Shown: positions 5,950 through 23,648 of the stretch, piece by piece
How the letters are laid out: every line of letters starts with the position of its first letter
How positions within the stretch are numbered: position 1 is the stretch's first letter
Virus record (IMG/VR): IMGVR_UViG_3300029042_000248
DNA: 33,844 nt
Direction: 5' to 3' (one strand)
DNA from: a virus
Taxonomy: Duplodnaviria > Heunggongvirae > Uroviricota > Caudoviricetes
Translations under genes and position numbers: made by a program
The notes under the pieces: model-generated
What the model was told of the DNA's origin: nothing
Seen by the model: only the letters and a program-made list of their open reading frames with translations
Databases searched by the model: none

Positions 5950-5952
5950 CCG

Positions 5953-7664: not shown

Positions 7665-7668
7665 TCAA

Positions 7669-7694: not shown

Positions 7695-7749
7695 ATGCCT
7701 CCGGCACCATGAAGCAGACCACGTTTAAATCTGCTTCACAGGTGCTTTT

Positions 7750-8346: not shown

Positions 8347-8347
8347 T

Positions 8348-8575: not shown

Positions 8576-8969
8576 TCTTTTTGTTCGCGTTATTTACTCC
8601 CGCTTTATGTTGTGCCAGTGGTCGTTTCTGGGACTGTCGGCAGTACTTTTTCTGGCGAGCTGTTTTGCCGGATGGCGGGCGTTTGCGGTCATGGTGCTGG
8701 CATACGGCGCGACACTCTGCCTGATTCACAGTTTCCAGCTGGGCAACGTACCTTATCGCCTGCAGCCCAAAAGGCGTTTCCGGGCCGCCTCCCTTCGAAT
8801 TGTCGTGTGGTCATGGGTGGTCTGGGCCGTTGGTTTTTTCATGCTGACATTCGGCATTCTTTATCTGAAGGAGCCTTATCAGCTGGCGTTCTGGCTGGGC
8901 GGTATTTTTTGCGCGGCACTTTATAAACATCAGCGCCGTTTTCATAAGGGGGATTCATGGATCCGTTAA
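8559..8969 (+). CDS. Hypothetical integral membrane protein, ~4 predicted TM segments (137 aa)
   Basis: In-frame ATG at 8559 (alt 8568) within listed ORF 8388-8969; four long hydrophobic stretches. Confidence 0.5.
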   Translation: MHRMNSLFVRVIYSRFMLCQWSFLGLSAVLFLASCFAGWRAFAVMVLAYGATLCLIHSFQLGNVPYRLQPKRRFRAASLRIVVWSWVVWAVGFFMLTFGILYLKEPYQLAFWLGGIFCAALYKHQRRFHKGDSWIR

Positions 8970-9565
8970 CCCTTTCAGGCATCGCCTCTGTTCTGCTGAA
9001 AGCCGGGCCGGGGCTGATTCGTTCCGTCGGGCGCTGGTTTGGTGGCAGTACATCTGCCGCCGCTGACTCGGTGGCCGGTATGGTGGAAAGCGTCCGGGAA
9101 AGCCTGCCGGTGGCTGAACAGCAGCGCGTTCTGGAACAAAAGCTGGTGATGTTGTCACCGGAACAACTGATGCAACTGGAAACCCTGAAAGTGCAGTTGC
9201 AACAACTGGCGGTGGAACGGCAGAAGCTGGTGCTGGCTGACCAGCAGGCTTCGCACCACGAACAGCAGGAAACCATCCGCAATGGTGACAACGCCACGGA
9301 CAGCTATGTGCGCCAGACGCGCCCGCTGCTGGCGCGCCTTTCCTGTTACAGCAGTCTGGCCTATGTGCTGTTGCTCTCCTGCGGCCAGATTGCCGGAGCC
9401 ATTGCCGGTGCCAGCGGTATCACGCTGCATATGCCATCACCGGACTGGGATATCACGCTGATGTTGCTTACCCCGGCACTGGGCTATCTCGGCGTAAGAA
9501 CCGTTGACGGTTTTGCCCGTTACAGCAAGTCAAGCAAGGACAAAATATCTGCGGGGCCGAAATGA
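8957..9565 (+). CDS. Hypothetical coiled-coil protein with hydrophobic C-terminal segments (202 aa); possible lysis or membrane-associated function
   Basis: Central Q/L-rich coiled coil, C-terminal hydrophobic stretches. Confidence 0.4.
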   Translation: MDPLTLSGIASVLLKAGPGLIRSVGRWFGGSTSAAADSVAGMVESVRESLPVAEQQRVLEQKLVMLSPEQLMQLETLKVQLQQLAVERQKLVLADQQASHHEQQETIRNGDNATDSYVRQTRPLLARLSCYSSLAYVLLLSCGQIAGAIAGASGITLHMPSPDWDITLMLLTPALGYLGVRTVDGFARYSKSSKDKISAGPK

Positions 9566-9789
9566 CCGACGAAATCGACCGCATCAGTGAAGTGGTTCTG
9601 AACGAACGTCAGAGCGTCGTTAAAGCCTGGCAGACACGGACAAAAGAAGCGCCCCACAGCCGGGGCTTCTGCAATGACTGCGGGAACGTTATTCCGGCAC
9701 AGCGCCTTGCGGCGCTGCCGGATGTGGTGACCTGTATTGACTGTCAGCAGATACGGGAACACAGGAGGAAATCGTGTCCTGGGAAATGA
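9562..9789 (+). CDS. TraR/DksA-family C4 zinc-finger protein (75 aa)
   Basis: CNDCGNVIPAQRLAALPDVVTCIDCQ = C-x2-C-x17-C-x2-C. Confidence 0.75.
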   Translation: MTDEIDRISEVVLNERQSVVKAWQTRTKEAPHSRGFCNDCGNVIPAQRLAALPDVVTCIDCQQIREHRRKSCPGK

Positions 9790-10079
9790 TCAGAGCCAAC
9801 TGGCCCATTCTGTGGGCATTGCTGATGACGGGAATAAACCTGCTTCAGCTGATTCTGGCAAAGACCTACGTCAAACGCGAAGAGTTTGATTTGCTGCGTT
9901 CCCGCGTGTCGGTGATGGAAAGCCAGGTACATCAGCTACCTGATCGTGATGAGTTCCACCGCCTGCAACTGGATATCAGCAACCTGCGGGGAGAAATCAA
10001 AGAGCTGGGGCCATCCATCCGCCAGGTATCCCGCATCAGCGATTTGTTATTAGAGAACGAGTTAAAGGAAAAAAATTAA
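9774..10079 (+). CDS. Membrane-anchored coiled-coil protein (101 aa), Mu gp25/DUF2730-like by architecture
   Basis: N-terminal TM (WPILWALLMTGINLLQLILA) followed by coiled coil. Confidence 0.45.
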   Translation: MSWEMIRANWPILWALLMTGINLLQLILAKTYVKREEFDLLRSRVSVMESQVHQLPDRDEFHRLQLDISNLRGEIKELGPSIRQVSRISDLLLENELKEKN

Positions 10080-10372
10080 TGGCGATGAAAGAGATCCTCA
10101 CTGAAGACCGTCGTCTGGTGTTGCTGCGTTCCCTGCTGGATTGTGGCGACAGCGCGAATGAATCCGTGTTGCAGACCTGCCTTCAGGCCTACGGTCATAA
10201 GGTATCCCGTGATGTGGTGCGCACCCAGCTTGCATGGCTGCGCGAGCAGGGGCTGGTTCGTCTGTCTGATGTGGGCGGCTGTTACGTGGCTGAAATCACC
10301 GGCAGCGGTGAGGATGTGGCAAACGGCCTGTCCAGCGTTCCGGGCGTTAAAAAACCCCGTGCGAGGGACTGA
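10079..10372 (+). CDS. Hypothetical protein (97 aa)
   Basis: ORF coupled to neighbours; helix-rich. Confidence 0.45.
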   Translation: MAMKEILTEDRRLVLLRSLLDCGDSANESVLQTCLQAYGHKVSRDVVRTQLAWLREQGLVRLSDVGGCYVAEITGSGEDVANGLSSVPGVKKPRARD

Positions 10373-10374
10373 GC

Positions 10375-10674
10375 ATGGCCCGAAAACTGAAGCCGTTAAG
10401 TCGCGGAGAACGGGCCGTCGTGCGGCAGCTGGCGTACTGTCTTGTGCTCGCGGATATTGAGAAAAACGCCATCGCCCGTGCATATGAACAACAGACCGGA
10501 AAGCCCTGGAACCCGGATGCACCGGATACCCCCATGAAACGTGCCCTGCGTTCATCACCGGCATGTGCGCGGCTGTGGAAGCTGCTGGGTAAGGATATCC
10601 GCTCCGTTCGCGAAGAAATATACGCCGGTCTGAAAACACCGGGAACTGAAGACGGGGGCCGTCGTGAACCGTAA
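10375..10674 (+). CDS. Hypothetical protein (99 aa)
   Basis: ORF coupled to neighbours; basic. Confidence 0.45.
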   Translation: MARKLKPLSRGERAVVRQLAYCLVLADIEKNAIARAYEQQTGKPWNPDAPDTPMKRALRSSPACARLWKLLGKDIRSVREEIYAGLKTPGTEDGGRREP

Positions 10675-10811
10675 AAAGAATCCGATAAGTAAAGCGTCCC
10701 GTGATGAACTCCGCCGTCTGGCGCACAACCTGACATGGCGGGAAATCCAGAACGGCGCACTGAAATCTGCATACGAAAGTTTACAGCGTAGTGAGCAACA
10801 GGAGCGCACAC

Positions 10812-11243
10812 ATGGAAAATGAACAACGCCCCACCCGTGGCCGTCTTTCCAAAGTGGATTTACTCCCGGACAGCATCCGGGAGCAGTTGCATCAGATGCT
10901 GCGGGAAAAGCGGCACACGCAGGAAGAAATCCGCGAAGCCATCAACGCCCTGATTGACGAACACAACCTGCCGGAAGAGATGCAGTTAAGCCGGACGGGC
11001 TTAAACCGCTATGCCATCCGCATGGAAAAAGTCGGGGCCAAAATCCGCGCCTCCCGCGAAATGGCCGAAGTCTGGGCGGCAAAGCTGGGTTCCGCGCCAA
11101 CATCAGACGTCGGCAAGCTGCTGATGGAGTTTGTAAAAACGCTGGCCTTTGAAACGTCCATGTCGATGGCAGAAGACGACAAACCTGTTGCACCGAAGGC
11201 GCTGGGCCAACTGGCGCTGGTTGCCCAGCGTCGGCAGCCATGA
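10812..11243 (+). CDS. Putative terminase small subunit / DNA-binding packaging protein (144 aa from ATG 10812)
   Basis: Immediately upstream of the large terminase; AGGAG RBS before ATG 10812 (the track starts at GTG 10791); assignment by position. Confidence 0.4.
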   Translation: MENEQRPTRGRLSKVDLLPDSIREQLHQMLREKRHTQEEIREAINALIDEHNLPEEMQLSRTGLNRYAIRMEKVGAKIRASREMAEVWAAKLGSAPTSDVGKLLMEFVKTLAFETSMSMAEDDKPVAPKALGQLALVAQRRQP

Positions 11244-11386
11244 CCAGCCATAAACGCGAAAAAGCGATCCGCGATGCGTTTGCGCAGGAGATGGCAGAGA
11301 AAACCGAAGAACTGGTCAGAACGGGCGGTCTGTCAGGTGGTGCGGCTGACACCATCAAACGTGAAATTCTGGGGATTAGCGCATGA
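11240..11386 (+). CDS. Small ORF (48 aa) bridging the putative small and large terminase genes
   Basis: ATG overlaps previous stop (ATGA) and its stop overlaps the large-terminase ATG; below the track size cutoff, read manually. Confidence 0.3.
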   Translation: MTSHKREKAIRDAFAQEMAEKTEELVRTGGLSGGAADTIKREILGISA

Positions 11387-12918
11387 CACAGATGAACACG
11401 TTCAGTGAATACGATGTTCTGCTGCCGTATCAGAAACGCTGGGTGGCGGATGATGCCGACCTGAAAATCGCCGAGAAATCCCGCCGTACCGGTTTAACCT
11501 GGGCGGAAGCTGCGGATGCGGCACTGACGGCATCACTGAAGAAGGAAGACGGCGGGCGCGATCACTTTTATATCGGTTCGAATAAGGAGATGGCCCGCGA
11601 ATTTATCGACGCCGTGGCGATGTGGGCGAAAGCGTTTAATGCGGCAGCGGAAGAAATCTGCGAGGAAGTGATCACCGACGAAGACAAGGACATTCTGACG
11701 TTCGTCGTGTACTTCGCCAGCGGTTTTAAGGTCAAGGCACTGTCCAGCAACCCGAGCAACATTCGCGGGATGCAGGGGAATGTCACCATCGACGAGGCCG
11801 CGTTCCATGAAAAACTGGACGAACTGCTGAAGGCCGTGCTGCCGCTGAAAACATGGGGCGGCAAAATTCGCCTTATTTCCACCCATGACGGCGTGGACAA
11901 CCTGTTTAACCAGCTGATTCAGGAAAGCCGCGCGGGCAAAAAAGATTACAGCATTCACACCATCACGCTGGACGACGCCTGCAATGACGGGCTGTACCGG
12001 CGTATCTGTCAGGTGCGCGGCATGGTGTGGTCACCGGAAGCCGAGGCGGAATGGAAAGAAGGCCTGCTGCGAAATACCGCCACCCGCGAAGACGCACTGG
12101 AGGAATATTACTGCGTCCCGAAAAACGGCGGCGGCACGTATATCCCCCGCTCACTGCGTGAACGTGCGGCCCGTGGCACCGGAAAAGTGTTGCGCTTTAC
12201 CGGCACACCGGAATTTAACGCACTGACGGAAAGTCAGCGCCGGGCAGATATCCGGGAATGGCTGGAAACAGTGGTGCGCCCCGAGCTGGAAAAACTCCCG
12301 CAGAACCTGCGCCACTGTCTGGGGGAAGACTTTGCGCGTTCGGGTGACCTGACCGTACTGGCCCCGGTGACGGTGAACGATGACACCACCCGCGAGGTGC
12401 CGTTCCTGGTTGAGCTTGGCAATGTGCCGTTTAAACAGCAGGAGCAGGTGCTGTTCTGGCTTTGCGATCGTCTGCCCCGTCGTGACGGTATCAAAATGGA
12501 TGCGCGGGGGAATGGTCAGTATCTGGCAGAACAGGCGGCGGAGCGGTACGGCGACGAAGTGGAACAGGTGATGCTGTCCGTGGCGTTCTACCGCGAAAAC
12601 ATGCCCCGGTTCCGTGCGGCGTTTGAAGATGATGAGCTGATCCTTCCGAAGCATGAAGACGTGATCAATGACCTCGGGGCCATTCAGTTACTGCGTGGCG
12701 TTCCCGGCATTGATGATTCACGAACCAAAGGCAGCGACGGTCACAAACGTCACGGCGACGCCGCTGTGGCCATTTTCCTGGGCTTCCTTGCCAGCAAGGA
12801 TGACTGCCACCGTTACGAACTGCACCGCCTGAACCGCCCGGCGAAACCGGAAGAACGCAACGCGCGCCGCCAGATGAAGCTGACGCGCGGCCTGAAAAAT
12901 GAGGGAGGTTTACTGTGA
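11383..12918 (+). CDS. Terminase large subunit (511 aa)
   Basis: Size and position before the portal; overall resemblance to Mu-type large terminases from memory. Confidence 0.8.
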   Translation: MTQMNTFSEYDVLLPYQKRWVADDADLKIAEKSRRTGLTWAEAADAALTASLKKEDGGRDHFYIGSNKEMAREFIDAVAMWAKAFNAAAEEICEEVITDEDKDILTFVVYFASGFKVKALSSNPSNIRGMQGNVTIDEAAFHEKLDELLKAVLPLKTWGGKIRLISTHDGVDNLFNQLIQESRAGKKDYSIHTITLDDACNDGLYRRICQVRGMVWSPEAEAEWKEGLLRNTATREDALEEYYCVPKNGGGTYIPRSLRERAARGTGKVLRFTGTPEFNALTESQRRADIREWLETVVRPELEKLPQNLRHCLGEDFARSGDLTVLAPVTVNDDTTREVPFLVELGNVPFKQQEQVLFWLCDRLPRRDGIKMDARGNGQYLAEQAAERYGDEVEQVMLSVAFYRENMPRFRAAFEDDELILPKHEDVINDLGAIQLLRGVPGIDDSRTKGSDGHKRHGDAAVAIFLGFLASKDDCHRYELHRLNRPAKPEERNARRQMKLTRGLKNEGGLL

Positions 12919-14486
12919 ACCTGAAACAACTGGCCGGGGCCGTTCGCCGTCTGCTGAACCCGGCAACCGGTGAGGAAGACACGCTGAAAAAAGAGGCGCT
13001 CAACGAAGCACAGGCCCGTCCGCGTCATGCCGGTGTGCGTTCGGCCTCGCCGGGTATCAGCGTCGCCTCCGGGCTGAACCCCGGCAGGCTGGCAGGCATT
13101 CTGCGCAATGCTACTGACGGCATCACGCGTGATTTTTTTATCCTTGCTGAAGAGATGGAAGAACGCGATTTGCATTACGCCTCGGTACTGCGCACCCGCA
13201 AGCTGACGGTGGCGGGTATCGAACCGGTGGTGGTGGCCGCCAGTGATGACGATGCTGACGTGCAACTGGCGGACGCCATCCGTGCACTGATGGAGGCACC
13301 GCAAATCCCTGAGCTGATGTTTGATCTGCTCGACGGGCTGGGAAAAGGCGTGGCGGTCTGTGAAATTTTGTGGAACACCCGCAACAACCACTGGGTGCCC
13401 CGTGATTATGAGTGGGTTGATCCCCGTTTTCTGAAAGCTGAAAAGCCCACGCTGCGTCAGTTCCGCCTGCTGACGGACGATGAACCGGTGGATGGCGTAC
13501 CGCTGACACCGGGAAAATTCATTGTTCACCAGCCGCGTCTGAAATCCGGTCTGCCGCTGCGTAATGGTCTGGCCCGTCTGGTGGCGGTGATGTACATGCT
13601 GAAATCCTTTACCGTGCGCGACTGGTGGGCATTTGCGGAAAAATTCGGCATTCCGGTTACGGTGGGGAAATACGGTCCCAACGCCACGGAGGAGCAAATC
13701 CGCGTGCTGATTGATGCGATTGCCTCCATTGCCTCGGATGCCGGGTGTGCTATTCCGCAGTCCATGCAACTGGAGATGAAGGAAACCGCCAGCAGGAATA
13801 ACGGCGGCGCACTGTTCCGTGAAATGGCGGAATGGTGCGATGCGCAAATCAGTAAAGCCGTGCTGGGGCAGACCATGACCACGGATAACGGCAGTTCGCG
13901 TTCACAGGCGGACGTGCACAATCAGGTGCGCATGGACATTGTGCGCTGGGACGCGCGGCAACTGGCTAACACGCTGAATGAATATCTGGTACGCCCCTAC
14001 ATTGAGGCCAACTACGGGCCACAGGCGCACTACCCCCGTGTTGTTCTGCGTATCAGTGAAGCGGAAGATTTGAAGGCGCTGACAGACGCTCTGGTGCCAC
14101 TGATTGACCGGGGGATGCGGGTTCAGGAATCGGAGCTGCGGGACCGGTTCGGCCTGGCTGAACCGGACGACGGGGCTGATGTTCTGCATCCGGTGTCTGC
14201 CGGAATGTCAGGTGATGTGGCGATGAACCGCGAGCGCGTCGCCCTGAACCGGGAACACCCCGATGAACTGGCACAGATGGTGGATGATGCCCTGCGTGAC
14301 TGGCAGAAAACCGGCGAGGCGTTCACGAACCCGGTGCTGACACTGGCGCAGGAATGCGACAGTTTTGATGACTTTCTGAAACGCCTGCCTGAGCTTCAGG
14401 AAACGCTGAACGCGGACGACTTTGCCCTGCAACTGGCGGAGGTGTGCTTTAAGGCGCGTGCGCTGGGGGACACTGCTCATGCGTGA
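12915..14486 (+). CDS. H: Portal protein, Mu gp29-like (523 aa)
   Basis: Size and position between terminase and F-like gene. Confidence 0.8.
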   Translation: MNLKQLAGAVRRLLNPATGEEDTLKKEALNEAQARPRHAGVRSASPGISVASGLNPGRLAGILRNATDGITRDFFILAEEMEERDLHYASVLRTRKLTVAGIEPVVVAASDDDADVQLADAIRALMEAPQIPELMFDLLDGLGKGVAVCEILWNTRNNHWVPRDYEWVDPRFLKAEKPTLRQFRLLTDDEPVDGVPLTPGKFIVHQPRLKSGLPLRNGLARLVAVMYMLKSFTVRDWWAFAEKFGIPVTVGKYGPNATEEQIRVLIDAIASIASDAGCAIPQSMQLEMKETASRNNGGALFREMAEWCDAQISKAVLGQTMTTDNGSSRSQADVHNQVRMDIVRWDARQLANTLNEYLVRPYIEANYGPQAHYPRVVLRISEAEDLKALTDALVPLIDRGMRVQESELRDRFGLAEPDDGADVLHPVSAGMSGDVAMNRERVALNREHPDELAQMVDDALRDWQKTGEAFTNPVLTLAQECDSFDDFLKRLPELQETLNADDFALQLAEVCFKARALGDTAHA

Positions 14487-15243
14487 AACCCTCATCCCGA
14501 AAGAGGCGCTGGCGTGGCTGAAGGCGAAGAAGCTGCGCCCCGGTTTTGATTACCGGGATGTATGGCGGGAAGAGCACCGGAACAGCTTCACCGTGGCAAA
14601 AATGCTGCAACTGGATTTGTTGTCGGATGTGAAAGCCCTTGTGGAAGACGCCCTGCAAAGCGGGCAGACGTTCAGCGAGTTCCGGGAGGCGCTGCAACCG
14701 CTGCTGATAAAACGCGGATGGTGGGGCGTTCAGGAGATGGATGATCCGCTGACGGGCGAAAGGCGCACCGTGCAACTGGGCAGCGACCGCCGCCTCCGCA
14801 CGATTTTTGATACCAACATGCGCACCGCCCGCGCGGCGGGCCAGTGGGAACGCATTCAGCGGACAAAGCGGGCCATGCCGTATCTGATTTACGAGCTGGG
14901 ACCATCCCGCGAGCACCGGGCGGAGCATGTGAAATGGGCGCGTCTGTGTCTGCCGGTAGATCATCCGTTCTGGCAGACGCATTTCGCCCCTAACGGCTGG
15001 GGCTGCAAATGCACCATCCGTCAGGTCAGCCGTGGTGAATATGCGCAACTGGCGGCACAGGGCACCATTCACACCGAAGCGCCGGAAATCAGAACTGTCC
15101 GCTGGGTGAACAAACGCACGGGCGAAGAGGAAGAGGTGCCGGAAGGGATTGATCCGGGCTGGAACTACAATCCCGGTATAAACCGTGAGCAGGAGCTGGC
15201 ACGCCAGCTGGCGACAAAACAGGCCCGTTTTGACAGTGAGTAA
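14479..15243 (+). CDS. F: Head morphogenesis protein, Mu F-like (254 aa from ATG 14479)
   Basis: In-frame ATG at 14479 overlapping the portal stop; conserved region HVKWARLCLPVDHPFWQTHFAPNGWGCKCTIRQVSR resembles the Mu F family. Confidence 0.75.
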   Translation: MRETLIPKEALAWLKAKKLRPGFDYRDVWREEHRNSFTVAKMLQLDLLSDVKALVEDALQSGQTFSEFREALQPLLIKRGWWGVQEMDDPLTGERRTVQLGSDRRLRTIFDTNMRTARAAGQWERIQRTKRAMPYLIYELGPSREHRAEHVKWARLCLPVDHPFWQTHFAPNGWGCKCTIRQVSRGEYAQLAAQGTIHTEAPEIRTVRWVNKRTGEEEEVPEGIDPGWNYNPGINREQELARQLATKQARFDSE

Positions 15244-15271
15244 CCCTCCCGCCGTAAATCCCCCTGAAACG

Positions 15272-15299
15272 CATCAGAAACGCGTTTTTTATTCTGATG
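15272..15299 (+). other. Hairpin (8-bp stem catcagaa/ttctgatg) in the F-I intergenic region
   Basis: Exact reverse-complement arms 15272-15279 and 15292-15299; loop contains ACGCGT. Confidence 0.5.
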
Positions 15300-15319
15300 G
15301 CGTGAATGTGCATTCTGAC

Positions 15320-15360
15320 GTTTTTGAAGATGCTGTGGCGTTTTTGAAGGGGTTTTGAAG
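15320..15360 (+). repeat. Three direct copies of GTTTT(T)GAAG in the F-I intergenic region
   Basis: gtttttgaag at 15320-15329 and 15340-15349, gttttgaag at 15352-15360. Confidence 0.6.
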
Positions 15361-15381
15361 GGGGTATTTCCCCGTTTTCAG

Positions 15382-15407
15382 TGAAGCCGGTAAATCCGGC
15401 TTTTTTT
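15382..15407 (+). terminator. Palindrome+T7 element, copy 2 (identical 26-mer to 7669-7694)
   Basis: Exact repeat of tgaagccggtaaatccggcttttttt; followed by TGCCTTCCGCA (copy 1 has TGCCTCCGGCA). Confidence 0.6.
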
Positions 15408-15456
15408 CTGCCTTCCGCATACTGACCGTCGGTAACCCCAAACGACGGAGACTGAC

Positions 15457-16419
15457 ATGCAACCGGAACTGCTGGCGCTGTGTTTTTCCCTGCCAGAACC
15501 CATCCCTGAGCTGACACCTGCTCAACTGCCGGAATGGCTTGAACTCGTCCCTGCGGGTGAGTTCACCGGGCGCGATGGCCGGACGTGGATTAACCGCAAT
15601 CCGCATGAGGTGGTCACCCGCTCGTCCGACATCAAAATTCCGGTGGACATTGAACACGCCACCGAAATTAAAGGGCAACGCGGTGATGAAGCCCCGGCGT
15701 ATGGCTGGGTGGAAGAACTGCGCGTGACGGACAGCGGCACCATTGAAGGCCGTGTTGTCTGGAGCGAGTACGCCCGGTGGATGCTGAGCGAACGCCGCTA
15801 CCGCTATTACAGCCCGGCGTTTTTCTTTGACGCAGACGGTGTGGTGACGCGCCTGTCCAGCGTCGGGCTGACCAACAAACCTAACCTGGACTTTCCTGCA
15901 CTGAATACGGAGAAAAACCCGATGACAGTACCTGTGCAAATCACCGGCCTGCTTGGGCTGGCTGAATCTGCCACGGTGGACGATACCGTGGCCGCCATTA
16001 AACAACTTCAGGAGAACGAACAGGTGGCGCTGAACCGCGCACAGACACCTGACCTGACGAAGTTTGTGCCGGTGGAAACCCACAATCTGGCACTGAACCG
16101 TGCCGAAACCGCAGAACAACGCCTTCAGCAACTGGAAGAGAAGGAAGCAGAAGCGCTTGTGGATGCGGCCATCGAAGCCGGAAAAGTGGCCCCGGCAAAC
16201 CGTGACATGTTCCTTGCCACCTGCCGCACGGAAGAAGGCCGCAAACAGTTTGCGGAATACACCAAAGGTGCACAGCCGCTGGTGAACAACGACAAGCCCA
16301 GCCAGGGCAAGGATAAACCCGCGCAGACACTGACCGACGCCGAACTGGCGATGTGCCGCAGCATGGGTATTACCGGGGAAGAGTTCCTCGCCGCTAAACC
16401 TAAACAGGAGAATAACTGA
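15457..16419 (+). CDS. I: Head protease / scaffold protein, Mu I-like (320 aa)
   Basis: Position before the major head gene; C-terminal coiled-coil region; GGAG RBS 6 nt upstream. Confidence 0.75.
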   Translation: MQPELLALCFSLPEPIPELTPAQLPEWLELVPAGEFTGRDGRTWINRNPHEVVTRSSDIKIPVDIEHATEIKGQRGDEAPAYGWVEELRVTDSGTIEGRVVWSEYARWMLSERRYRYYSPAFFFDADGVVTRLSSVGLTNKPNLDFPALNTEKNPMTVPVQITGLLGLAESATVDDTVAAIKQLQENEQVALNRAQTPDLTKFVPVETHNLALNRAETAEQRLQQLEEKEAEALVDAAIEAGKVAPANRDMFLATCRTEEGRKQFAEYTKGAQPLVNNDKPSQGKDKPAQTLTDAELAMCRSMGITGEEFLAAKPKQENN

Positions 16420-17321
16420 TGGGAGCAGTCACTTCCGAAGTCCTTCACGCGCTGACCACCTGTCTGAGCGCCGCTTATACCCGTGGTCTGAGTGGTGTCA
16501 CCCCACAATGGCAGCGCATCGCCTCTGAAATCCCGAGTTCGTCCGCTTCCAATACCTACGGCTGGATGAAAGATTTACCGGAGATTAAGGAATGGGTCAG
16601 CGCCCGTCAGATGGCAACGCTGGACGGTTATGGTTACACCCTTGCGAACAAAACCTGGGAAAGTTCGATCCGCGTTAAACGCGAACACATTGAAGACGAT
16701 CAGATTGGTCAGTACAGCATTATCGCTGAACGCTATGGCCGCCAGACGTCGGAGTTCCCGGACAAGCTGTGTTACCCCCTGCTGTGTGCCGGGTTTAACA
16801 CCCTGTGTTTTGACGGTCAGAACTTCTTTGATGAAGACCACCCGCTGGGCGACGGCACATACAGCAACGTTGTCGGCACCCCGGCATCAGACCAGGGGGA
16901 ACCGTGGTTTCTGATTGATGATTCTCAGGTACTGAAACCCATCATCTGGCAGACGCGACGCGCCTTTAAGTTTGAAGCACTGGATGATCTGAACAGCGAG
17001 CACACCTTCAAGAATAACGAGTTCCTTTACGGGGTGGACGGTCGCTGCAATGCGGGCTTCGGCTTCTGGCAGACCACCGTCGGTTCCCGTGCGGCACTGA
17101 CAGCGGAGAACTACGAGAAGGCCAGCAATCTGCTGCTGGGTATGAAGGCCACCAACGGTGAACCGCTGGGCATCCGCCCGACCACCCTTGTGGTGGGGCC
17201 GAAAAACCGTGCAGCCGCGAAGCGCATCATTGACGCCATGCTGGTTAACGGCGGCGATTCCAACATCTGGTACAAGGATGTGGACATCGTGGTCAGCCCG
17301 TTCATCACCACCCCGGCATAA
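16419..17321 (+). CDS. T: Major head subunit, Mu T-like (300 aa)
   Basis: Size and position; followed by strong hairpins typical of major capsid genes. Confidence 0.8.
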   Translation: MGAVTSEVLHALTTCLSAAYTRGLSGVTPQWQRIASEIPSSSASNTYGWMKDLPEIKEWVSARQMATLDGYGYTLANKTWESSIRVKREHIEDDQIGQYSIIAERYGRQTSEFPDKLCYPLLCAGFNTLCFDGQNFFDEDHPLGDGTYSNVVGTPASDQGEPWFLIDDSQVLKPIIWQTRRAFKFEALDDLNSEHTFKNNEFLYGVDGRCNAGFGFWQTTVGSRAALTAENYEKASNLLLGMKATNGEPLGIRPTTLVVGPKNRAAAKRIIDAMLVNGGDSNIWYKDVDIVVSPFITTPA

Positions 17322-17349
17322 CCCGTCATCCGTAATCTGTTGTAACCCG

Positions 17350-17398
17350 CAGTTAAAAGGCGCTGTGAATGCCCTTTTAACTGCCTTTTAAAAGGCAG
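17350..17398 (+). terminator. Two adjacent stem-loops after the major head gene (11-bp stem 17350-17383; 18-nt perfect palindrome 17381-17398)
   Basis: cagttaaaagg/ccttttaactg arms with 12-nt loop; ctgccttttaaaaggcag palindrome; no T-tract, so terminator or RNA-stabilising structure. Confidence 0.5.
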
Positions 17399-17402
17399 AG
17401 TC

Positions 17403-17714
17403 ATGAGTGAAAAAGCAGGAACCAAAGGCGCGAAAGCCGCAAAGAACGGCGCAGCACAGGAAAACCCGGCACCGCTGGCAGACGTTATTGTGGCTGACGG
17501 TCAGGCGAATGAACCACGTCCGGCTGAAGACCCGGTTACTGTACAGGGTGACGCCCCTGTCCGGCTGAACGTCCGGGCCGTGTCTGAAAACGGGTTCTGG
17601 CGCTGTGGCCGTTTCTGGTCACATGCCGGTGAGGATGTGGCGGTGAGCGCTGCGGTTGCCACCCGCCTGATGGCAGAGCCGAATCTGATTGTCCGGGAAG
17701 CGGAGAAAGGCTGA
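17403..17714 (+). CDS. Hypothetical head-associated protein, Mu gp35 position (103 aa)
   Basis: ORF after major head gene; Ala/Pro-rich N-terminus. Confidence 0.5.
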   Translation: MSEKAGTKGAKAAKNGAAQENPAPLADVIVADGQANEPRPAEDPVTVQGDAPVRLNVRAVSENGFWRCGRFWSHAGEDVAVSAAVATRLMAEPNLIVREAEKG

Positions 17715-18151
17715 TGGGGTACATCACGCAGGAAGACCTGTTACGCGCAGACGGCAATCTTGTCTGGAACATGGCGATTAACCGGGAAACCAACGGACTG
17801 GATGAAGACAAAATCCGTCAGGCCATCAGTGATGCCGAAGCGGAAATTGATTCGTTTCTGTCCCGCCGCTACCAGCTGCCGCTGGGGGTGACGGAAATCC
17901 CGCGCCCGCTGCAACGCGTGGCGGTATCGCTGGCGTTTTACTGGTTGTCAGAGCGTGACAATCAAATCACGGAGCTGATCCAGAAACGCTACGACGACGC
18001 CATTAAAACCCTGCGTGAGATGGCGAACGGCACCCGTGACCTGGGACTGCCGACGTATGCCACCCCGGCAGAAACCGACCACGGGAAAATCATTGTGGTG
18101 GGTGCCAATGCCCGGCTGTTCACCCGTAACAACCTGAAAGGGGTGCTGTGA
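17714..18151 (+). CDS. Head-tail joining / head completion protein, Mu gp36-like (145 aa)
   Basis: Position and size; coupled to neighbours. Confidence 0.5.
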   Translation: MGYITQEDLLRADGNLVWNMAINRETNGLDEDKIRQAISDAEAEIDSFLSRRYQLPLGVTEIPRPLQRVAVSLAFYWLSERDNQITELIQKRYDDAIKTLREMANGTRDLGLPTYATPAETDHGKIIVVGANARLFTRNNLKGVL

Positions 18152-18693
18152 TGGGGATTTCTGTACAGGTCAGCGGTGACCAGCGGCTGGAGGATATCCG
18201 CCGCGCCGTTGAAAAGCTGGCAGATGGTTCATTGCAGGCAGAGCTGCTGGAGAGCATCGGTGCGGTGGTGGAATCACAGACCCGCCGCCGCATCATCGAT
18301 GAGAAAACCAGTCCGGGTGGCGAACGCTGGCCGGACTGGTCTGACGGGTACAAAAAGACCCGCCACGGCAACCAGAGTCTGCTGCGTGGTGAAGGCCATC
18401 TGCTGGAGAGTATCCAGTACATCGTGGAAAACCGCGTGGTGCGTATCGGTTCACCGCTGGATTATGCCCGCATCATGAATGACGGCTTTTCCGGCAGTGT
18501 GCCGGTCAGCGCCCACAAACGACTTATCTCGCAGTGTTTCGGGCGGGCGCTGAAATATCCGGTCTGGCAGACCGTCGGCGCACATAACCGCATGATGAAC
18601 ATTCCACAACGTGAATTTCTGGGGCTGTCTTCTGCCAATCAGCAGGAGCTGCAACAGGTTATCAGTCATTTCTGGAAGGAGGTTCTGCCATGA
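18148..18693 (+). CDS. Virion morphogenesis / tail completion protein (181 aa)
   Basis: Position between head and sheath genes; family assignment tentative. Confidence 0.5.
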   Translation: MMGISVQVSGDQRLEDIRRAVEKLADGSLQAELLESIGAVVESQTRRRIIDEKTSPGGERWPDWSDGYKKTRHGNQSLLRGEGHLLESIQYIVENRVVRIGSPLDYARIMNDGFSGSVPVSAHKRLISQCFGRALKYPVWQTVGAHNRMMNIPQREFLGLSSANQQELQQVISHFWKEVLP

Positions 18694-19301
18694 CAGAACA
18701 ACGCCCTGAACTGCGCACACCGGGGAGCACCGTTGCGGCCGCAGAGCGCATTGTGGCCTGGCTGAAAACAGCACTTCAGGGGAAAACCCCTGACCGGGCC
18801 GACGTGGTGGAGCGTCACATCGGCCAGTTCAACAGCCCGGAAGAAGTGAAGCGCTATCTGTCCGGTCGTACCGGCTGTATCCGGGTAGCGGCCCTGCGTG
18901 TCCGGGATATCAACCCGCGCGGCGGGCTGTCCGGTCTGGTTACCTGGGTGGCTTACATCATGGCGACGGATTCGTGGGGGTACTCCCGCGACGTGCGCTG
19001 TGAAGTGATGGCCGGAAAGGTGATTAAACGCCTGCTGTCGTCGGATGCCACAGCGGGCATGGGGGCTGAACGCATGGCTGCTGATGTGCGGGCAGACAAC
19101 ATTTACTCCGCCAGCCTCGACGGGCTGGGCGTCACCATGTGGGCGGTGACGTGGGAGCAGGAATTTCAGCTGGATGAAGAGATTGATCTCGCCGCGCTCC
19201 CGGACTTCCTGCGCCTCGGGGCAACGCTGCGTAGCGGTGAACACACTGAAATTAACGACGTGATCCATGTACGGGGTGACGATGGAACAGAAACTGATTA
19301 A
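18690..19301 (+). CDS. Hypothetical structural protein, Mu gp38 position (203 aa)
   Basis: Position; coupled to neighbours. Confidence 0.5.
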   Translation: MTEQRPELRTPGSTVAAAERIVAWLKTALQGKTPDRADVVERHIGQFNSPEEVKRYLSGRTGCIRVAALRVRDINPRGGLSGLVTWVAYIMATDSWGYSRDVRCEVMAGKVIKRLLSSDATAGMGAERMAADVRADNIYSASLDGLGVTMWAVTWEQEFQLDEEIDLAALPDFLRLGATLRSGEHTEINDVIHVRGDDGTETD

Positions 19302-19467
19302 GCCAGCGCGGGAAAACGTCCGTGTCCGTAAACCGGATGGCGCGCATTTATCCCCGGAAGGGGAACGTCTCGACGTCTGCGCTTACTGGCTGCGCCGTGA
19401 AGCCGAGGGAGATGTGGAAATAACCGCGCTTCCGAAAAATAGCAACAAAACCAGAGGGAAAAAATAA
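19282..19467 (+). CDS. Small hypothetical protein (61 aa from ATG 19282)
   Basis: Small ORF directly upstream of the sheath gene; start uncertain (19267 or 19282). Confidence 0.35.
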   Translation: MEQKLIKPARENVRVRKPDGAHLSPEGERLDVCAYWLRREAEGDVEITALPKNSNKTRGKK

Positions 19468-20942
19468 TGTCGCTGGGTTCAATTCCTGATGATATCCGCG
19501 TCCCGCTTGTCTGGATCGATATCGACAATTCACAGGCGCTGGATGGTGCATCCGCGCAGAGCCGAAAAATTCTGGTCATGGGCCATGCGGTATCGTCCGG
19601 CAGCGCAGACGCCCTGTCACTGACCCGCATCACCAGTGACAGCCAGGCAGATCAGCTTTATGGCAAAGGGTCGATGCTGGCTGAAATGCTCAAAATGCTG
19701 CGCCGTGCCAACACGTACACGGAAACCTGGGCAATGCCGGTTGCCGCGCCTGAAGGCGCTGCCGCAAAAGCCACGCTGACCGTGCTGGGGACAGCGACTG
19801 AAGCCGGAACGGTGGCACTGCTGATTAACGGTGTGTCCGTTCAGGTGAGCGTGAGCGCCGGGGCTACGAAGGAAAATATTGCAAAAGCTATTGCTGATGC
19901 GGTGACAAAAAAGCCTGCCACGCAGGTGGCCGCTGCGGTGAAGGATGATGCCACGGATACCGTGGAGCTGACCGTGAACTGGCACGGCGTCACCGGCAAC
20001 GGTGCCGACGTTCGCCTGAACTACTACACCGGTGAAGCCTTCCCGGCAGGTGTGAAGGTGACCGCCACCGCGTTTACCGGCGGCACCGGGACACCGGAAA
20101 TGGCGGATGCCGTTGCGGCCATCGGCCCGGAGTGGTTTACCGATATCATCGCCCCGTTCACCGACACGAAAAGCCTGAACACCCTGCGTGATGAACTGCT
20201 GAACCGCTGGGGGCCGCTCAAAATGATGGAGGCGCAGTTGTGGACGGCGTTTCGTGGCACACACGGCGAGACAGGCACGTTTGGTGAAACCCGCAATGAC
20301 TGGCTGATTAGCTGTATCGGCACCAACCTGTCACCGCATCCGGCGTGGATGTGGGCCGCGTCATACGGCGCAACGGCAGCGTATCACCTTGCCATTGACC
20401 CGGCGCGTCCGCTTCAGACGCTGGTCCTGACCGGCATTCTGCCGCCTGCGCGTAATGTTCGCTGGGATATGCCGGAACGTAACCTGCTGCTGCATGACGG
20501 CATTGCCACGCACATGGTGGACGCCGGGGATAACGTCTGCATCGAGCGTGAAATCACCATGTACCGGGTTAACCAGTACGGTGATGCGGATGTGTCGTAC
20601 CTGGATGTGCAGTCCCCCGCCACGCTGGGCCGTATCCGTTACATCATCAAAAACCGTTTCACGAACCGTTATCCGCGCCACAAGCTGGCAGATGATGACG
20701 TGCTGGACTCACTGGATGCGGGGCAGCCGGTGATGACGCCGAAGCTGTGCACCGCAGAGCTGCTGGATATCTGCCAGACCGAACTTATTCCTGCGGGCCT
20801 TGTGGAGAACTTCAGCGATTACAAGGACACGCTTCAGGTGACACGCGACAGCAGCGATAAAAACCGCCTGAACTTTATCTGCCACCCGAATCTGGTGAAC
20901 CAGCTGCGTGTGCTGGCAGGCCTGATTCAGTTCAAGCTTTAA
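19467..20942 (+). CDS. L: Contractile tail sheath protein (491 aa)
   Basis: Size and position before the tube gene; Mu L-like. Confidence 0.85.
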   Translation: MSLGSIPDDIRVPLVWIDIDNSQALDGASAQSRKILVMGHAVSSGSADALSLTRITSDSQADQLYGKGSMLAEMLKMLRRANTYTETWAMPVAAPEGAAAKATLTVLGTATEAGTVALLINGVSVQVSVSAGATKENIAKAIADAVTKKPATQVAAAVKDDATDTVELTVNWHGVTGNGADVRLNYYTGEAFPAGVKVTATAFTGGTGTPEMADAVAAIGPEWFTDIIAPFTDTKSLNTLRDELLNRWGPLKMMEAQLWTAFRGTHGETGTFGETRNDWLISCIGTNLSPHPAWMWAASYGATAAYHLAIDPARPLQTLVLTGILPPARNVRWDMPERNLLLHDGIATHMVDAGDNVCIEREITMYRVNQYGDADVSYLDVQSPATLGRIRYIIKNRFTNRYPRHKLADDDVLDSLDAGQPVMTPKLCTAELLDICQTELIPAGLVENFSDYKDTLQVTRDSSDKNRLNFICHPNLVNQLRVLAGLIQFKL

Positions 20943-20951
20943 GGGGACCAC

Positions 20952-21308
20952 ATGGCAAAAATTCTTGGCATGGCGACCATTCGCGTGAATGGCCGCGAAA
21001 TTAAAACCGAGGGGAAATCCACGCTGAACCCGGGCGGCTTCAGCCGCACCCAGCATATGGGCGGCGGCAAGGTCTGGGGTATCTCCAGCAAGATGGCCTC
21101 GCCGTCCATCAAAGTGACCATTGCGGCGGCTGCGGATATGGACGTGATTGAAATCAGCAGCTGGGAAGACGTCACGGTGATGTTCTACGGCGACAACGGC
21201 CTGAACTACATGATGACGGGTTCCGCCACGGATAACCCGGCGGAGCTGGACGAGGATTCCGGCACCATCAGTGCCAACTTTATCGGTGAAAAATGCGTGA
21301 AGGTGTGA
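20952..21308 (+). CDS. M: Tail tube protein (118 aa)
   Basis: Small protein immediately after sheath, Mu M-like. Confidence 0.8.
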   Translation: MAKILGMATIRVNGREIKTEGKSTLNPGGFSRTQHMGGGKVWGISSKMASPSIKVTIAAAADMDVIEISSWEDVTVMFYGDNGLNYMMTGSATDNPAELDEDSGTISANFIGEKCVKV

Positions 21309-21309
21309 C

Positions 21310-21705
21310 ATGGCCGCAATGGAATTTGAACTGAAACACGGGCTTCTGACCGGCAAAGGCACGGCAGATGAAACCCTGCATAAAACCGTGAAACTGCGCG
21401 AGCTGACCGCCAGTGACGTGATTGATGCGCAACTGGCCGCAGAACGCGTCGTCATGGGCGGGAACGGAAAGGCGGTGGCCTACTGCTCGGAAGTGCTGAT
21501 GGGGCTGGAGATGATGCGCCGTCAGGTTGCGGCCATCGGCAGCATTCCCGGCCCGCTGGACATGAAACAGCTGCGAATGCTCCACCCGGCAGACCTTGAG
21601 CTTATCAGCACGAAAGCCGCTGCGCTGGATGACATGCTTGAGGAGGTGGCAACGCGGGGGCGAACTGATGCCGCTGGCGGCGGCACTGATGAACCTGCTG
21701 GTTAA
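21310..21705 (+). CDS. Tail assembly chaperone (131 aa)
   Basis: Position between tube and tape measure. Confidence 0.6.
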   Translation: MAAMEFELKHGLLTGKGTADETLHKTVKLRELTASDVIDAQLAAERVVMGGNGKAVAYCSEVLMGLEMMRRQVAAIGSIPGPLDMKQLRMLHPADLELISTKAAALDDMLEEVATRGRTDAAGGGTDEPAG

Positions 21706-21805
21706 CCTGTCCCAGCGATTCAGCATTCAGTACCTGGAACAGCTGCCCCTGCGGCAGCTGTTCCGCCTGATAAAGCAACTGGAGAAACAGCATGGCAACA
21801 GGTAA
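21668..21805 (+). CDS. Overlapping ORF in a different frame between chaperone and tape measure: possible frameshift extension (G/GT-like) or separate small gene
   Basis: Open frame 21596-21805 overlaps the chaperone 3' end and ends inside the tape-measure start; internal ATG at 21668. Confidence 0.3.
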   Translation: MPLAAALMNLLVNLSQRFSIQYLEQLPLRQLFRLIKQLEKQHGNR

Positions 21806-23648
21806 CCGTCTCAGCACGGAAATCACGATCAACCTTGCCGGGAACCTGACCGCCAAAGCCCGGCAGTACGGCGCAAATATGTCGCAGTTCGCCCGGAACC
21901 ATCAGAAGGCCATGCGCCTTGTCAAAGCCACAACGGAGGCCGCAGGACGCGGCCTTGATACGCTGGGCAACCGCTACACGGCAATGATAGCCGGGCTTGG
22001 CAGTAGCCTAACCATCAAACAGGTTGCCGATTTTGATGCGCAGATGCGCCGGATGGGTACGGATGCCCAGTTAACCACTGAACAGGTAAAGACGCTTCAC
22101 GACAAAATCAGGGATGTATCGAACCAGAAAGATATTCGTATTGATGCTTCTGCGCTTGGTCAGGGGGCCAGCGAACTTCTGGGGAAAACCGGTGATTATC
22201 AGTATGTGGTGGACAACCTCCGCAACATGGGGTTGATGATGCAGGCGTTCGGTGTTGACGGACAGGTTGCAGCCGGGCTGATGGCGCAGTTCTGGGAAAA
22301 AAACGTCCGGGGCGCTGATGCGGTCAGTAACATGATGGACAGGCTGTATTCGCAGTTCGCAGTGGGGTCTGTAAGCGTTGCCGATGTTGCCCGCGCTGCC
22401 CCGAAACTGTTTTCCATCATTCAGGATCAGGGACCGGAAGCCATTGCCCAGATGGGGGCATTTGCTCAGGTGTTCGCCAAAAACAAAGGCAGCATTGATG
22501 AAACGGTAACCAGTATTCAGGCCATGTATGCTTCCCTGTCGGACAAAAAGAACATCGAGTTCCTGAAAAAAAACGGCATTGACGTTTTTGTCAAAGGCAC
22601 AAAAGACATCAAAAAGCCCTATGAGCTGATGATGGAAATCCTTAAACGGGCCAAATACGACCCGCTGAAACTTCAGGATGTGTTTGATCTGACCGGAATG
22701 CAGGGGATTAAGGCGCTGCTCAACCCTGAAAACCGGCAACTGATGGAACAAATGATTTACGGCACGATTGATCTGGGTTCCACGCAAAAGGCCGCACAGA
22801 CCAATGCCGAAGGCTTTAATGCTGCAATGCAATCACTGAATAACGAATGGCAACGTTTTGCTGAAGGACAGCTGGCAAAGCCCGTTCAGGACCTGGCGGA
22901 TGCGCTCAACAGCGTGGACCAGAACACTGTCCAGAACTGGTTGCAGGTCGGTAAATATATGGCGATTGCGCTGGGTGGCATTATCGCCATCAGAAAGACG
23001 TATCAGTTCGGTAAAACCATCCACGACATCATGAATCCCAAAGGGAAAGGCAAAGGGATACCCGGTGGCATTACGGATGTTTTCGGCTCCGGCGTGATGC
23101 CGGTTTATGTGGTTAATATGGGCAGTGGCGGAATGAATGGTAATACCGGCGGTCTGCCGGATACACCGGATTCATCGCGCAATCCCCATAACCCACGCAA
23201 TCCACGAGGTTCGGGTAACCGTGGAGGAAAGGCAGGTAAAGGCGCTGGCATCATTGCCGGTGCTCTGGAGTTTTACGATTTTCTGACCACGCAATATGCC
23301 CTGCCGGGTGAGGTTCACAGTCTCACTAAATCCGTTGCCGGTGATGCCAGCGCCAGCCCGTGGGAGCGCGAGTTCGCACAACAAAGCCAGGACAACCAGA
23401 AAGCACTGGAATCCGTCTGGCGTAAGGTAACAGACTGGTTCAATTCGCTTGGTGATAAGAACATTGCCGACCCGCGACCGTGGGCAGGTATGCAACCCAC
23501 ACAGAATTATCCTTTCCTTCCGCAGCAGTTGCAGGGGGAAATCCGTGTGGTGGTGGAAGGTGACGCCCGCGTGAAAAGTGTCAGAGTGGATCAACCCGGC
23601 GTCAGACTCAGTGCGCAGGCTGGCGTCACCAGCGTGGAGCAAGGGTAA
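21792..23648 (+). CDS. Y: Tail tape measure protein (618 aa)
   Basis: Longest tail-region ORF after the chaperone; Gly-rich segment near the C-terminus. Confidence 0.85.
   Translation: MATGNRLSTEITINLAGNLTAKARQYGANMSQFARNHQKAMRLVKATTEAAGRGLDTLGNRYTAMIAGLGSSLTIKQVADFDAQMRRMGTDAQLTTEQVKTLHDKIRDVSNQKDIRIDASALGQGASELLGKTGDYQYVVDNLRNMGLMMQAFGVDGQVAAGLMAQFWEKNVRGADAVSNMMDRLYSQFAVGSVSVADVARAAPKLFSIIQDQGPEAIAQMGAFAQVFAKNKGSIDETVTSIQAMYASLSDKKNIEFLKKNGIDVFVKGTKDIKKPYELMMEILKRAKYDPLKLQDVFDLTGMQGIKALLNPENRQLMEQMIYGTIDLGSTQKAAQTNAEGFNAAMQSLNNEWQRFAEGQLAKPVQDLADALNSVDQNTVQNWLQVGKYMAIALGGIIAIRKTYQFGKTIHDIMNPKGKGKGIPGGITDVFGSGVMPVYVVNMGSGGMNGNTGGLPDTPDSSRNPHNPRNPRGSGNRGGKAGKGAGIIAGALEFYDFLTTQYALPGEVHSLTKSVAGDASASPWEREFAQQSQDNQKALESVWRKVTDWFNSLGDKNIADPRPWAGMQPTQNYPFLPQQLQGEIRVVVEGDARVKSVRVDQPGVRLSAQAGVTSVEQG

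Follow-up and report, generated by a model that had tools for sequence, protein, structure and literature searches.

The F-I intergenic region

The window analysed here is a 33,844-nucleotide stretch of viral DNA (Caudoviricetes; IMG/VR record IMGVR_UViG_3300029042_000248) which, by its open reading frame (ORF) layout and Pfam matches, is a Mu-like transposable prophage of Escherichia coli. Gene F (14422-15243, stop codon TAA at 15241-15243) and gene I (15457-16419, start codon at 15457), which encodes the protease/scaffold protein, are separated in this window by a 213-bp gap (15244-15456). A first-pass annotation of the sequence had described the gap as dense in motifs, without a credible ORF or a G-like gene, and had proposed that it combines a late promoter with a gyrase site. 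Our analysis indicates that the F-I gap is probably the counterpart of the G-I spacer of phage Mu and contains an element resembling Mu's strong gyrase site (SGS) beside a promoter predicted to depend on the activator Mor. The features of the gap, as predicted from its nucleotide sequence, are the following.

15241-15370, + strand: predicted gyrase-wrapped segment, motif positions -63 to +66
15251-15263: GCCGTAAATCCCC, in the predicted left arm
15272-15279 and 15292-15299, + strand: inverted repeat CATCAGAA/TTCTGATG, 8 of 8 bases complementary, 12-nt loop, in the left arm of the gyrase-site-like element
15304-15307: predicted 4-bp staggered cut, GAAT, the first four bases of the quasi-palindrome GAATGTGCATTC (15304-15315)
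15320-15373, + strand: right arm of the gyrase-site-like element, three GTTTT(T)GAAG repeats plus GGGGTATTTCCCC, with helically phased T-tracts
Starts at 15320, 15340 and 15351, + strand: the direct repeats GTTTT(T)GAAG, in order GTTTTTGAAG, GTTTTTGAAG and GGTTTTGAAG
15361-15373: dyad GGGG-TATTT-CCCC (GGGGTATTTCCCC), z = -1.97
15374-15379, + strand: A/T-rich GTTTTC at -57 to -52, corresponding to the proximal UP-element subsite GTAAAC of Mu Pm, with its position inferred from the Pm numbering (PMC4390567)
15380-15395, + strand: predicted Mor box AGTGAAGCCGGTAAAT at predicted -51 to -36, the Mu box being AGTAAAGCCGGTTAAT
15383-15407, + strand: hairpin GAAGCCGG-TAAAT-CCGGCTTT followed by T7, from a terminator scan, overlapping the Mor box and the -35/spacer region
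15383-15407: GAAGCCGGTAAATCCGGCTTTTTTT, a 25-mer repeated exactly at 7670-7694
15401-15407, + strand: T7 run
15418-15423, + strand: -10 hexamer CATACT at predicted -13 to -8, in the same register as TATCCT of Mu Pm
15426-15431 and 15443-15448, + strand: inverted repeat CCGTCG/CGACGG, overlapping the Shine-Dalgarno sequence GGAG (15447-15450)

Every motif listed for 15244-15456 in the first-pass annotation was found where it had been placed, its "26-bp element" being the 25-mer above. The statement that the gap holds no credible ORF is borne out by the RefSeq copies of the gap, none of which has an annotated gene there. A tblastn search with Mu G (gp31) gave no match in the window, in agreement with the reported lack of a G-like gene between F and I.

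A predicted Mor-dependent promoter upstream of I

The right third of the gap (15374-15456) is a predicted Mor-dependent promoter of the Mu Pm type, and box sequence, spacing and conservation support this assignment. The Mor dimer binds a 16-bp element at -51 to -36, centred at -43.5, which consists of two 5-bp inverted repeats and a G/C-rich hexanucleotide spacer, and Mu Pm has a -10 hexamer and lacks a -35 hexamer (PMC4287176, PMC4390567). Primer JM1 and Table 3 of the published work fix the Pm numbering, with GTAAAC at -57 to -52 (PMC4390567); the Mu box is therefore AGTAA-AGCCGG-TTAAT, with T7 at -30 to -24 and TATCCT at -13 to -8. The cloning primer "Mu Pm nt9163" agrees with this location of Pm (PMC9239132). 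The Mu sequence immediately 3' of mor reads ...CTGTAAACAGTAAAGCCGGTTAATCCGGCTTTTTTTACGTCCTCAATATCCT..., and Pm is AGTAAAGCCGGTTAATCCGGCTTTTTTT...TATCCT.

The window box, AGTGA-AGCCGG-TAAAT, matches the Mu box at 14 of 16 positions and is an imperfect dyad with 5-bp arms and a G/C-rich 6-bp spacer. The spacings of T7 and the -10 hexamer from the box are identical in the window and in Mu Pm. Positions 2 and 6 of the hexamer CATACT are A and T, and the -35 region is CCGGCT, with no -35 hexamer. Local alignment of 15366-15456 with Mu Pm gave z = 15.4, and none of 1000 shuffles aligned as well. Transcription is predicted to start at about 15431.

No promoter was found in the gap by a scan for the sigma-70 consensus. 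Consensus-like sigma-70 promoters were also depleted between 5 and 24 kb (2 detected vs. 9.5 +/- 2.9 in shuffled sequences), and this depletion over 5000-24000 fits activator-dependent late transcription. The C-box consensus, TTAT-N5-6-ATAA (PMC12867686), which is centred at -43.5 in the C-dependent late promoters of Mu (Plys, PI, PP and Pmom), does not occur in the gap, and its only matches in the whole window start at 4070, 4413 and 5373. These three early-region matches (4070-4082, 4413-4426 and 5373-5386) compare with 0.19 expected, and none of 100 shuffles reached three, in a phage without a C gene.

Conservation of the promoter was evaluated within and across lineages. Among 20 distinct E. 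coli-lineage sequences, the Mor box had no variable column out of 16, and the spacer and -10 region had two out of 28; the flanking coding DNA had 0.14-0.18 variable positions per column and the remaining gap 0.2-0.3. Relatives were obtained by an I-protein search, which returned a single locus from genome contigs and useful relatives from viral contigs. They comprise Brenneria-type and Klebsiella-type (L026-L034) loci, with I proteins about 60% identical, and Klebsiella phage Kp4866-3, with 68% DNA identity in this region. Good boxes (at most one mismatch) numbered exactly two, one after mor and one before I, in the window, in the prophage of ETEC1732 (L002) and in the Brenneria-type and Klebsiella-type phages. 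Kp4866-3 has both sites with two mismatches, plus a third, weaker site that also has two.

The block conserved across lineages was AGTGAAGSCGGTWAAT, which corresponds to the Mor box, together with CAYACTG at the -10 position. In a six-lineage alignment that includes the Mu I promoter (PI), CAnACTGnC at the -10 position was invariant and the window Mor box stood in the same register as the C-type box of PI. Because the box register is shared and CAnACTGnC is invariant, the I promoter of the window is best viewed as a putative positional orthologue of Mu PI with its activator box exchanged.

The late promoter proposed in the first-pass annotation is thus strengthened computationally by a near-copy of the mapped Mor box of Mu Pm, T7 and -10 elements at the Pm distances, a Mor orthologue encoded by the phage, and a box that is invariant in 20 variants. 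Two refinements follow the sequence comparisons: the predicted promoter is of the Mor/Pm type rather than the C type, and the "26-bp element" is a predicted Mor box plus a terminator-like hairpin.

A second copy of the predicted promoter and terminator-like hairpins

The exact recurrence of the 25-mer at 7670-7694, with 0.00 copies expected by chance, is the strongest single fact among the motifs listed for the gap. Similarity between the copies at 15383 and 7670 continues for about 45 bp, a stretch that takes in a -10-like hexamer in matching register. The second copy belongs to the following feature.

7667-7710, + strand: second predicted Mor-type promoter module, with box AATGAAGCCGGTAAAT (AATGA-AGCCGG-TAAAT), hairpin plus T7, and -10 hexamer CACCAT

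This module begins 3 nt past the mor stop codon, as Pm does in Mu, and precedes the GH108 lysin gene (7750), with a predicted start at about 7718. By sequence and placement, the module is the positional orthologue of Mu Pm.

The hairpin at 15383-15407 has an 8-bp stem, a 5-nt loop and a U7 run, with a folding energy of -12.6 kcal/mol (z = -3.7) that is the same for the other window copy. It has the form of a Rho-independent terminator, a G+C-rich hairpin directly before a U-run, and termination is predicted here. Mu Pm carries the same hairpin structure (-12.2 kcal/mol), which we take to be the terminator of the Mu early transcript. Between 5 and 24 kb, the + strand shows no clean intergenic terminator shape other than the hairpins at 7670-7694 and 15383-15407. 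They probably end the early operon and the lysis-to-F operon, and each downstream operon would therefore need Mor.

The Mor-family protein encoded by the window is 61% identical to Mu Mor and 33% identical to Mu C. Searches with tblastn detected no second Mor/C-family gene, and no C orthologue, in the window or in ETEC1732. Because the phage has no C gene, Mor seems to drive late transcription directly, and the regulatory cascade appears, on sequence grounds, to have two steps, from early transcription through Mor to late transcription, without the C step of Mu. The phage also has no middle operon, and the Pm-type box after mor leads directly to lysis genes. In the ETEC1732 variant (L002 10843-11840), an additional 165-aa ORF is present between mor and the Mor-type box.

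A possible third Mor-type promoter was observed at 26345-26400, inside a baseplate V-like gene, where CGTTTCAGGGAAAACGGTAAATC resembles 15373-15397, with a box match of 13 of 16 and TATTAT at the -10 distance. The site is kept in ETEC1732 and in Kp4866-3 (two mismatches in the box) and may correspond to Mu PP. Box matches with three mismatches occur near chance level, and the site is a lead only.

A gyrase-site-like element

The left two-thirds of the gap, about 15241-15370, is a likely candidate for a Mu-type SGS. Such sites are marked by unusually efficient binding and cutting by gyrase at one position (quinolone-induced, 4-bp stagger) and are needed for fast replicative transposition upon induction. 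The annotated gyrase cut of Mu is located 20 bp past the G stop codon, in the G-I spacer. In the alignment, window position 15304 stands opposite Mu 17876, and the annotated Mu cut at 17879/17880 is the other edge of the stagger. In the six-lineage alignment, the gap and the Mu G-I spacer run collinearly over the whole interval between the cut site and the ATG, the T-tract repeats included. The predicted site lies 15,917 bp into the 35,259-bp prophage, at 45% of its length, compared with 48.7% for the Mu site. Kp4866-3 (L005) was left out of the centre calculation as its ends are unlike Mu ends.

A link between the two spacers is provided by E. coli TUM9757 (L040), which contains a genuine Mu-type prophage that encodes F (439 aa), G and I (361 aa). 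The TUM9757 G-I spacer (L040 2468-2668) aligns end to end with that of Mu (z = 20), and its right arm is identical to window 15321-15366 at 44 of 46 positions (z = 26). This spacer, which is also present in strain PEC422, is a hybrid that consists of a Mu-like cut-site core and a C-type box with a right arm of the window lineage. The sequences suggest that SGS arms are exchanged between Mu-like phages. The right-arm columns TTTTT.AA...G..TT.AA.G..GT were invariant in the six lineages, Mu included. The 10-11 bp A/T periodicity of the right-arm region (15312-15377) ranked 53rd among 33,779 segments of 66 bp, and Mu's own right arm ranked 1493rd among 36,652. In Mu, a right arm with helically phased bending motifs is essential.

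Gyrase-site character was evaluated with a matrix based on the 130-bp gyrase motif defined by Topo-seq (Sutormin et al., 2019; PMC6379681). Ridge regression on published site scores (PMC6379681), first 251 and later 416 of them, gave a rebuilt symmetric matrix that approximates the published one rather than reproducing it. The training bases were W3110 1-200,000; their register was confirmed by G (71%) and C (65%) at the offsets where they were expected. In grouped cross-validation with five folds, r was 0.79 for 251 sites and 0.84 for 416 sites. The Mu SGS (17876), a held-out control, ranked 1-2 (n = 251) or 8-10 (n = 416) of 36,588 positions. Two further held-out controls came from pSC101: position 991 of tet(C), presumably the classical pBR322 "990" site, ranked first of about 9,100 positions, and the best site in 4680-5270, which we take to be the par region, ranked 11-13. 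Match counts against the published 133-bp gyrase consensus, whether of all matches or of G+C/A+T matches, were discarded because they did not place the Mu SGS control near the top.

Both models put window position 15304 second among 33,715 positions, scoring it at 9.9 (n = 251) and 11.0 (n = 416). In each of the 20 lineage variants, the best site precedes the Mor box by 75-77 bp and scores 11.0-14.4, and variants with several core substitutions scored higher on the rebuilt matrix. This pattern, in which all 20 variants keep the site and those with substituted cores score higher, suggests that selection acts on the character of a gyrase site and not on its sequence as such.

The gyrase-site-like element suspected in the first-pass annotation is supported, computationally, by the position of the gap as the counterpart of the Mu G-I spacer, the TUM9757 link, the phased right arm and the second-ranked matrix score at the base homologous to the Mu cut.

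Proposed function and alternative explanations

If the F-I gap functions as the Mu spacer does, gyrase would cut with a 4-bp stagger at 15304-15307 in the quasi-palindromic core and would wrap the I-proximal right arm, where the T-tracts (three GTTTTTGAAG-type repeats plus GGGGTATTTCCCC) recur once per helical turn. By analogy with Mu, gyrase would then supercoil the prophage domain processively and allow fast synapsis of the ends for replicative transposition. At the promoter, a Mor dimer would occupy AGTGAAGCCGGTAAAT at -51 to -36, with CCGGC and T7 filling the -35/spacer region, and the transcript from about 15431 would continue past the Shine-Dalgarno GGAG to cover I and the head genes. 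The hairpin and T7 would probably block read-through from the lysis-to-F operon, which would make the head genes Mor-dependent, and the same promoter module after mor would drive the lysis/packaging operon.

The gyrase site and the Mor promoter could, in addition, be mechanically coupled, such that one 213-bp module would link the replication and morphogenesis phases, a suggestion that we regard as quite unlikely. Coupling may exist because the predicted edge of the right arm (+66, 15370) abuts the predicted binding positions of alpha-CTD (the C-terminal domain of alpha) and Mor (-61 to -36, 15370-15395) and because the activator box doubles as an intrinsic terminator. Bound gyrase might gate or tune the Mor promoter by occlusion or local supercoiling, and firing of the late promoter might displace gyrase once replication is underway.

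Several observations weigh against a gyrase site beside a Mor-dependent promoter. Within the lineage, no part of the gap varies more than the gyrase core and left arm (about 0.31 variable columns). The alignment with the Mu G-I/SGS sequence that the first-pass annotation proposed was only partly favourable: collinearity from cut site to ATG was found, but direct pairwise similarity of the gap to the Mu spacer was weak (z = 2.3 overall and 1.5 for the SGS part), so that the homology claim rests on collinearity and the TUM9757 bridge. The predicted site is 1.7 kb off the exact centre of the prophage. The rebuilt matrix under-scores the Mu SGS (8.4-9.4 vs. 13.3-14.3 published), ranks the predicted site of the Brenneria-type relative only at about 400 of 20,816, and places the best site of Kp4866-3 in a different register. 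Position 28315 scores slightly above 15304 (11.1-11.7) and is the top of the window; it lies inside a tail/baseplate gene (28019-28603) and may be a second gyrase site or noise of the approximate matrix. Of the alternative strong gyrase sites tried in place of the Mu SGS, only that of a closely related prophage of O157:H7 Sakai worked (PMC10052514), and resemblance to the SGS therefore does not guarantee function. Against the promoter stand weak -10 hexamers and a start site that is a predicted one. A perfect terminator hairpin over the Mor box could also attenuate transcription, and the Klebsiella-type copy upstream of I has lost the hairpin's right arm as well as the T-run.

The alternative that survives best, although we consider it unlikely, is that the gap is only a promoter and terminator, with the phased T-tracts acting as curved DNA (a UP-like or nucleoid-protein site) that boosts the Mor promoter and with no special role for gyrase. 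The repeats stop only about 10 bp upstream of the -61 to -59 alpha-CTD position of a Pm-type promoter, and the poor conservation of the core and left arm within the lineage, the weak matrix score of the Brenneria-type copy and the failure of most alternative gyrase sites tried in Mu (PMC10052514) favor this explanation as well. However, no such repeats precede the second promoter copy (7667-7710), and the promoter can therefore do without them. In Mu and TUM9757, about 30 additional bp stand between the homologous repeats and the activator box, but the repeats still adjoin the mapped cut site, and the matrix chooses the homologous base in Mu, in TUM9757 and in all 20 variants.

It is very unlikely that the hairpin and T7 serve only as an intrinsic terminator for the operon upstream, present in duplicate at two operon ends, with the I promoter located elsewhere or I transcribed by read-through. 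The canonical terminator shape (-12.6 kcal/mol) and the finding that the two hairpins are the only clean ones of their kind on the + strand between 5 and 24 kb are consistent with that explanation. Conservation across lineages, however, falls on AGTGAAGSCGGTWAAT, that is, on the left half and the bases upstream, and not on the right stem arm or the T-run, and the Klebsiella-type copy upstream of I has no hairpin. The 14 of 16 match to the mapped Mu Mor site with a -10 hexamer in register, and the sigma-70 scan that found no alternative promoter in the gap, also argue for a Mor-dependent promoter at this position.

Still less probable, and extremely so, is that the gap is the decaying remnant of a lost G-like gene, with no function beyond the ribosome-binding site. 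Mu does have G between F and the spacer, and CATCAGAA(A)ACGCGT is shared by window 15272-15285 and the 3' end of Mu G. Against decay, the Mor box and spacer are far more conserved than the adjacent coding DNA, and lineages that share only about 60% identity in their I proteins retain this architecture. The least credible alternative is an sroD-like small RNA that ends at the 15383-15407 terminator; the Rfam match (RF00370, 15320-15408, + strand, E = 0.12) has the terminator at its 3' end, but this reading was rejected with the match at 22.1 bits, below the gathering score of 50, with no promoter-like site upstream and with the matched stretch consisting of the SGS right arm and Mor box, both otherwise explained.

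Other motifs in the gap

The inverted repeat at 15272-15299 would fold as RNA at -11.5 kcal/mol (z = -2.55). It has no U-run downstream and is therefore not terminator-like, and it is variable and lineage-specific, with no conservation in the Klebsiella-type and Brenneria-type relatives. The string CATCAGAAACGCGT (window 15272-15285) matches CATCAGAAAACGCGT at the 3' end of Mu G (Mu 17822-17836; L003 1823-1837). The positions of these strings differ by about 21-22 bp when counted from each cut site, and the match may be a trace of a lost G gene or chance. The GTTTT(T)GAAG repeat had six matches with at most one mismatch in the window, compared with 2.25 expected, and three of these are within 41 bp. 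The motif GCCGTAAATCCCC was considered as a Mor site and rejected: it resembles the right half of the box, but the left half is absent, and the motif is variable among variants and missing in other lineages.

The inverted repeat CCGTCG/CGACGG (-9.7 kcal/mol) is not significant alone (z = -1.6). Each lineage in the six-lineage alignment carries its own inverted repeat of 6-7 bp, of differing sequence, between the -10 hexamer and the Shine-Dalgarno sequence. RNAalifold found no consensus hairpin for the inverted repeat after the -10 hexamer, the stems being in shifted registers, and the count of covarying pairs for this structure was no better than in shuffles. The predicted start at about 15431 leaves most of the CCGTCG arm untranscribed, and we speculate that any effect of the repeat would be confined to read-through RNA, with the GG of GGAG being masked by it.

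Prophage setting

The other genes identified in the window are listed below.

940-2928: transposase A
2967-3905: B
6667-7218: GemA
7215-7664, + strand: Mor-family activator gene (Pfam PF08765, E = 1.4e-30)
7750-8346: GH108 lysin gene
Terminase and portal genes
16419-17321: major head protein T
18148-18693: PF05069 "virion morphogenesis" protein, corresponding in position to Mu gp37

The F protein is short (273 aa as an ORF, 254 aa as annotated) and matches only residues 14-266 of the 439-aa Mu F. An element at least 95% identical over 14900-15800 was detected in 49 of 5426 complete E. coli genomes (about 1%), with at most three copies per genome. The ends of the copy in ETEC1732 were mapped, giving the length of 35,259 bp, and this copy is inserted in flhA. 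Its termini are of the TG...CA type (TGTATTGATTCAC... and ...GCGCCGCTTCA), with a 5-bp target duplication, GCTAT, on both sides. The left end of this prophage, whose two end regions are L002 3487-3620 and 38700-38745, is presumably nearly identical to Mu attL. GATC clusters and TTAAATACCCCC upstream of com/mom in ETEC1732 (L002 37700-37800), beyond the window, recall the control region of Mu mom. The window phage and the ETEC1732 phage show mosaic differences around window positions 5373-6149, 7586-7659 and 8561-8958.

Comparison with known systems

The F-I module is the expected architecture of a Mu relative. It accounts for an unannotated 213-bp gap in about 1% of complete E. coli genomes and would provide a second, sequence-divergent example of a Mu-type central gyrase site, with a base-exact predicted cut and natural variants. 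This variant set is suited to asking which features make a gyrase site "strong" and transposition-promoting, and also to work on Mor promoters. The regulatory cascade would be simpler than that of Mu, with a Mor orthologue that reads Pm-type boxes at the lysis and head operons directly, and the I promoter illustrates swaps of activator boxes at otherwise conserved promoter positions among Mu-like phages.

The gyrase-site-like element shares with the Mu SGS (Pato, Howe & Higgins, 1990; reviewed in PMC10052514) its location in a non-coding spacer directly upstream of I near the middle of the prophage, a right arm with three phased TTTTTRAAS repeats at spacings of 20-21 and 11-12 bp in both, and a high rebuilt-matrix score at the homologous base. 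The cores differ, with GT^GAAT^GTGCATTC in the window and AA^AATC^AGCCGC in Mu. In contrast to Mu, the window has no G to the left, so that the left arm is non-coding and begins at the F stop codon; its right arm is about 30 bp nearer the activator box, and the site, which is predicted from sequence, lies at 45% of the genome rather than 49%. The G-I spacer of TUM9757 and PEC422 has a right arm nearly identical to that of the window (44 of 46 positions over 15321-15366) but differs in its Mu-type core ATAA^AATC^ACGCG, the presence of the G gene, about 30 extra bp and the C-type box ACTAAAACTGGATAAC.

The promoter modules resemble Mu Pm (Artsimovitch & Howe, 1996; PMC4390567, PMC4287176) in the 14 of 16 Mor box, CCGGC and T7, a -10 hexamer at -13 to -8 without a -35 hexamer, the terminator-like hairpin over the box, and the 61% identical Mor encoded by the phage. 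Unlike Pm, which drives the middle operon encoding C, the window modules precede late head and lysis genes, are present in two copies per genome, and have CATACT and CACCAT rather than TATCCT as -10 hexamers. The copy upstream of I is like the C-dependent Mu PI in its position, its CAnACTGnC -10 region followed by an inverted repeat, and its box register, whereas its box is of the Mor type, TTAT-N5-6-ATAA is missing from the gap and a C gene is missing from the phage.

The plasmid strong gyrase sites (the pBR322 "990" site and pSC101 par) are not known to have functionally replaced the Mu SGS. These two sites and the 130-bp Topo-seq motif are comparable to the window site, which scores high on a matrix of the same form and shares arms with A/T phasing of about 10.7 bp. 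The plasmid sites are non-phage and have no sequence homology with the window.

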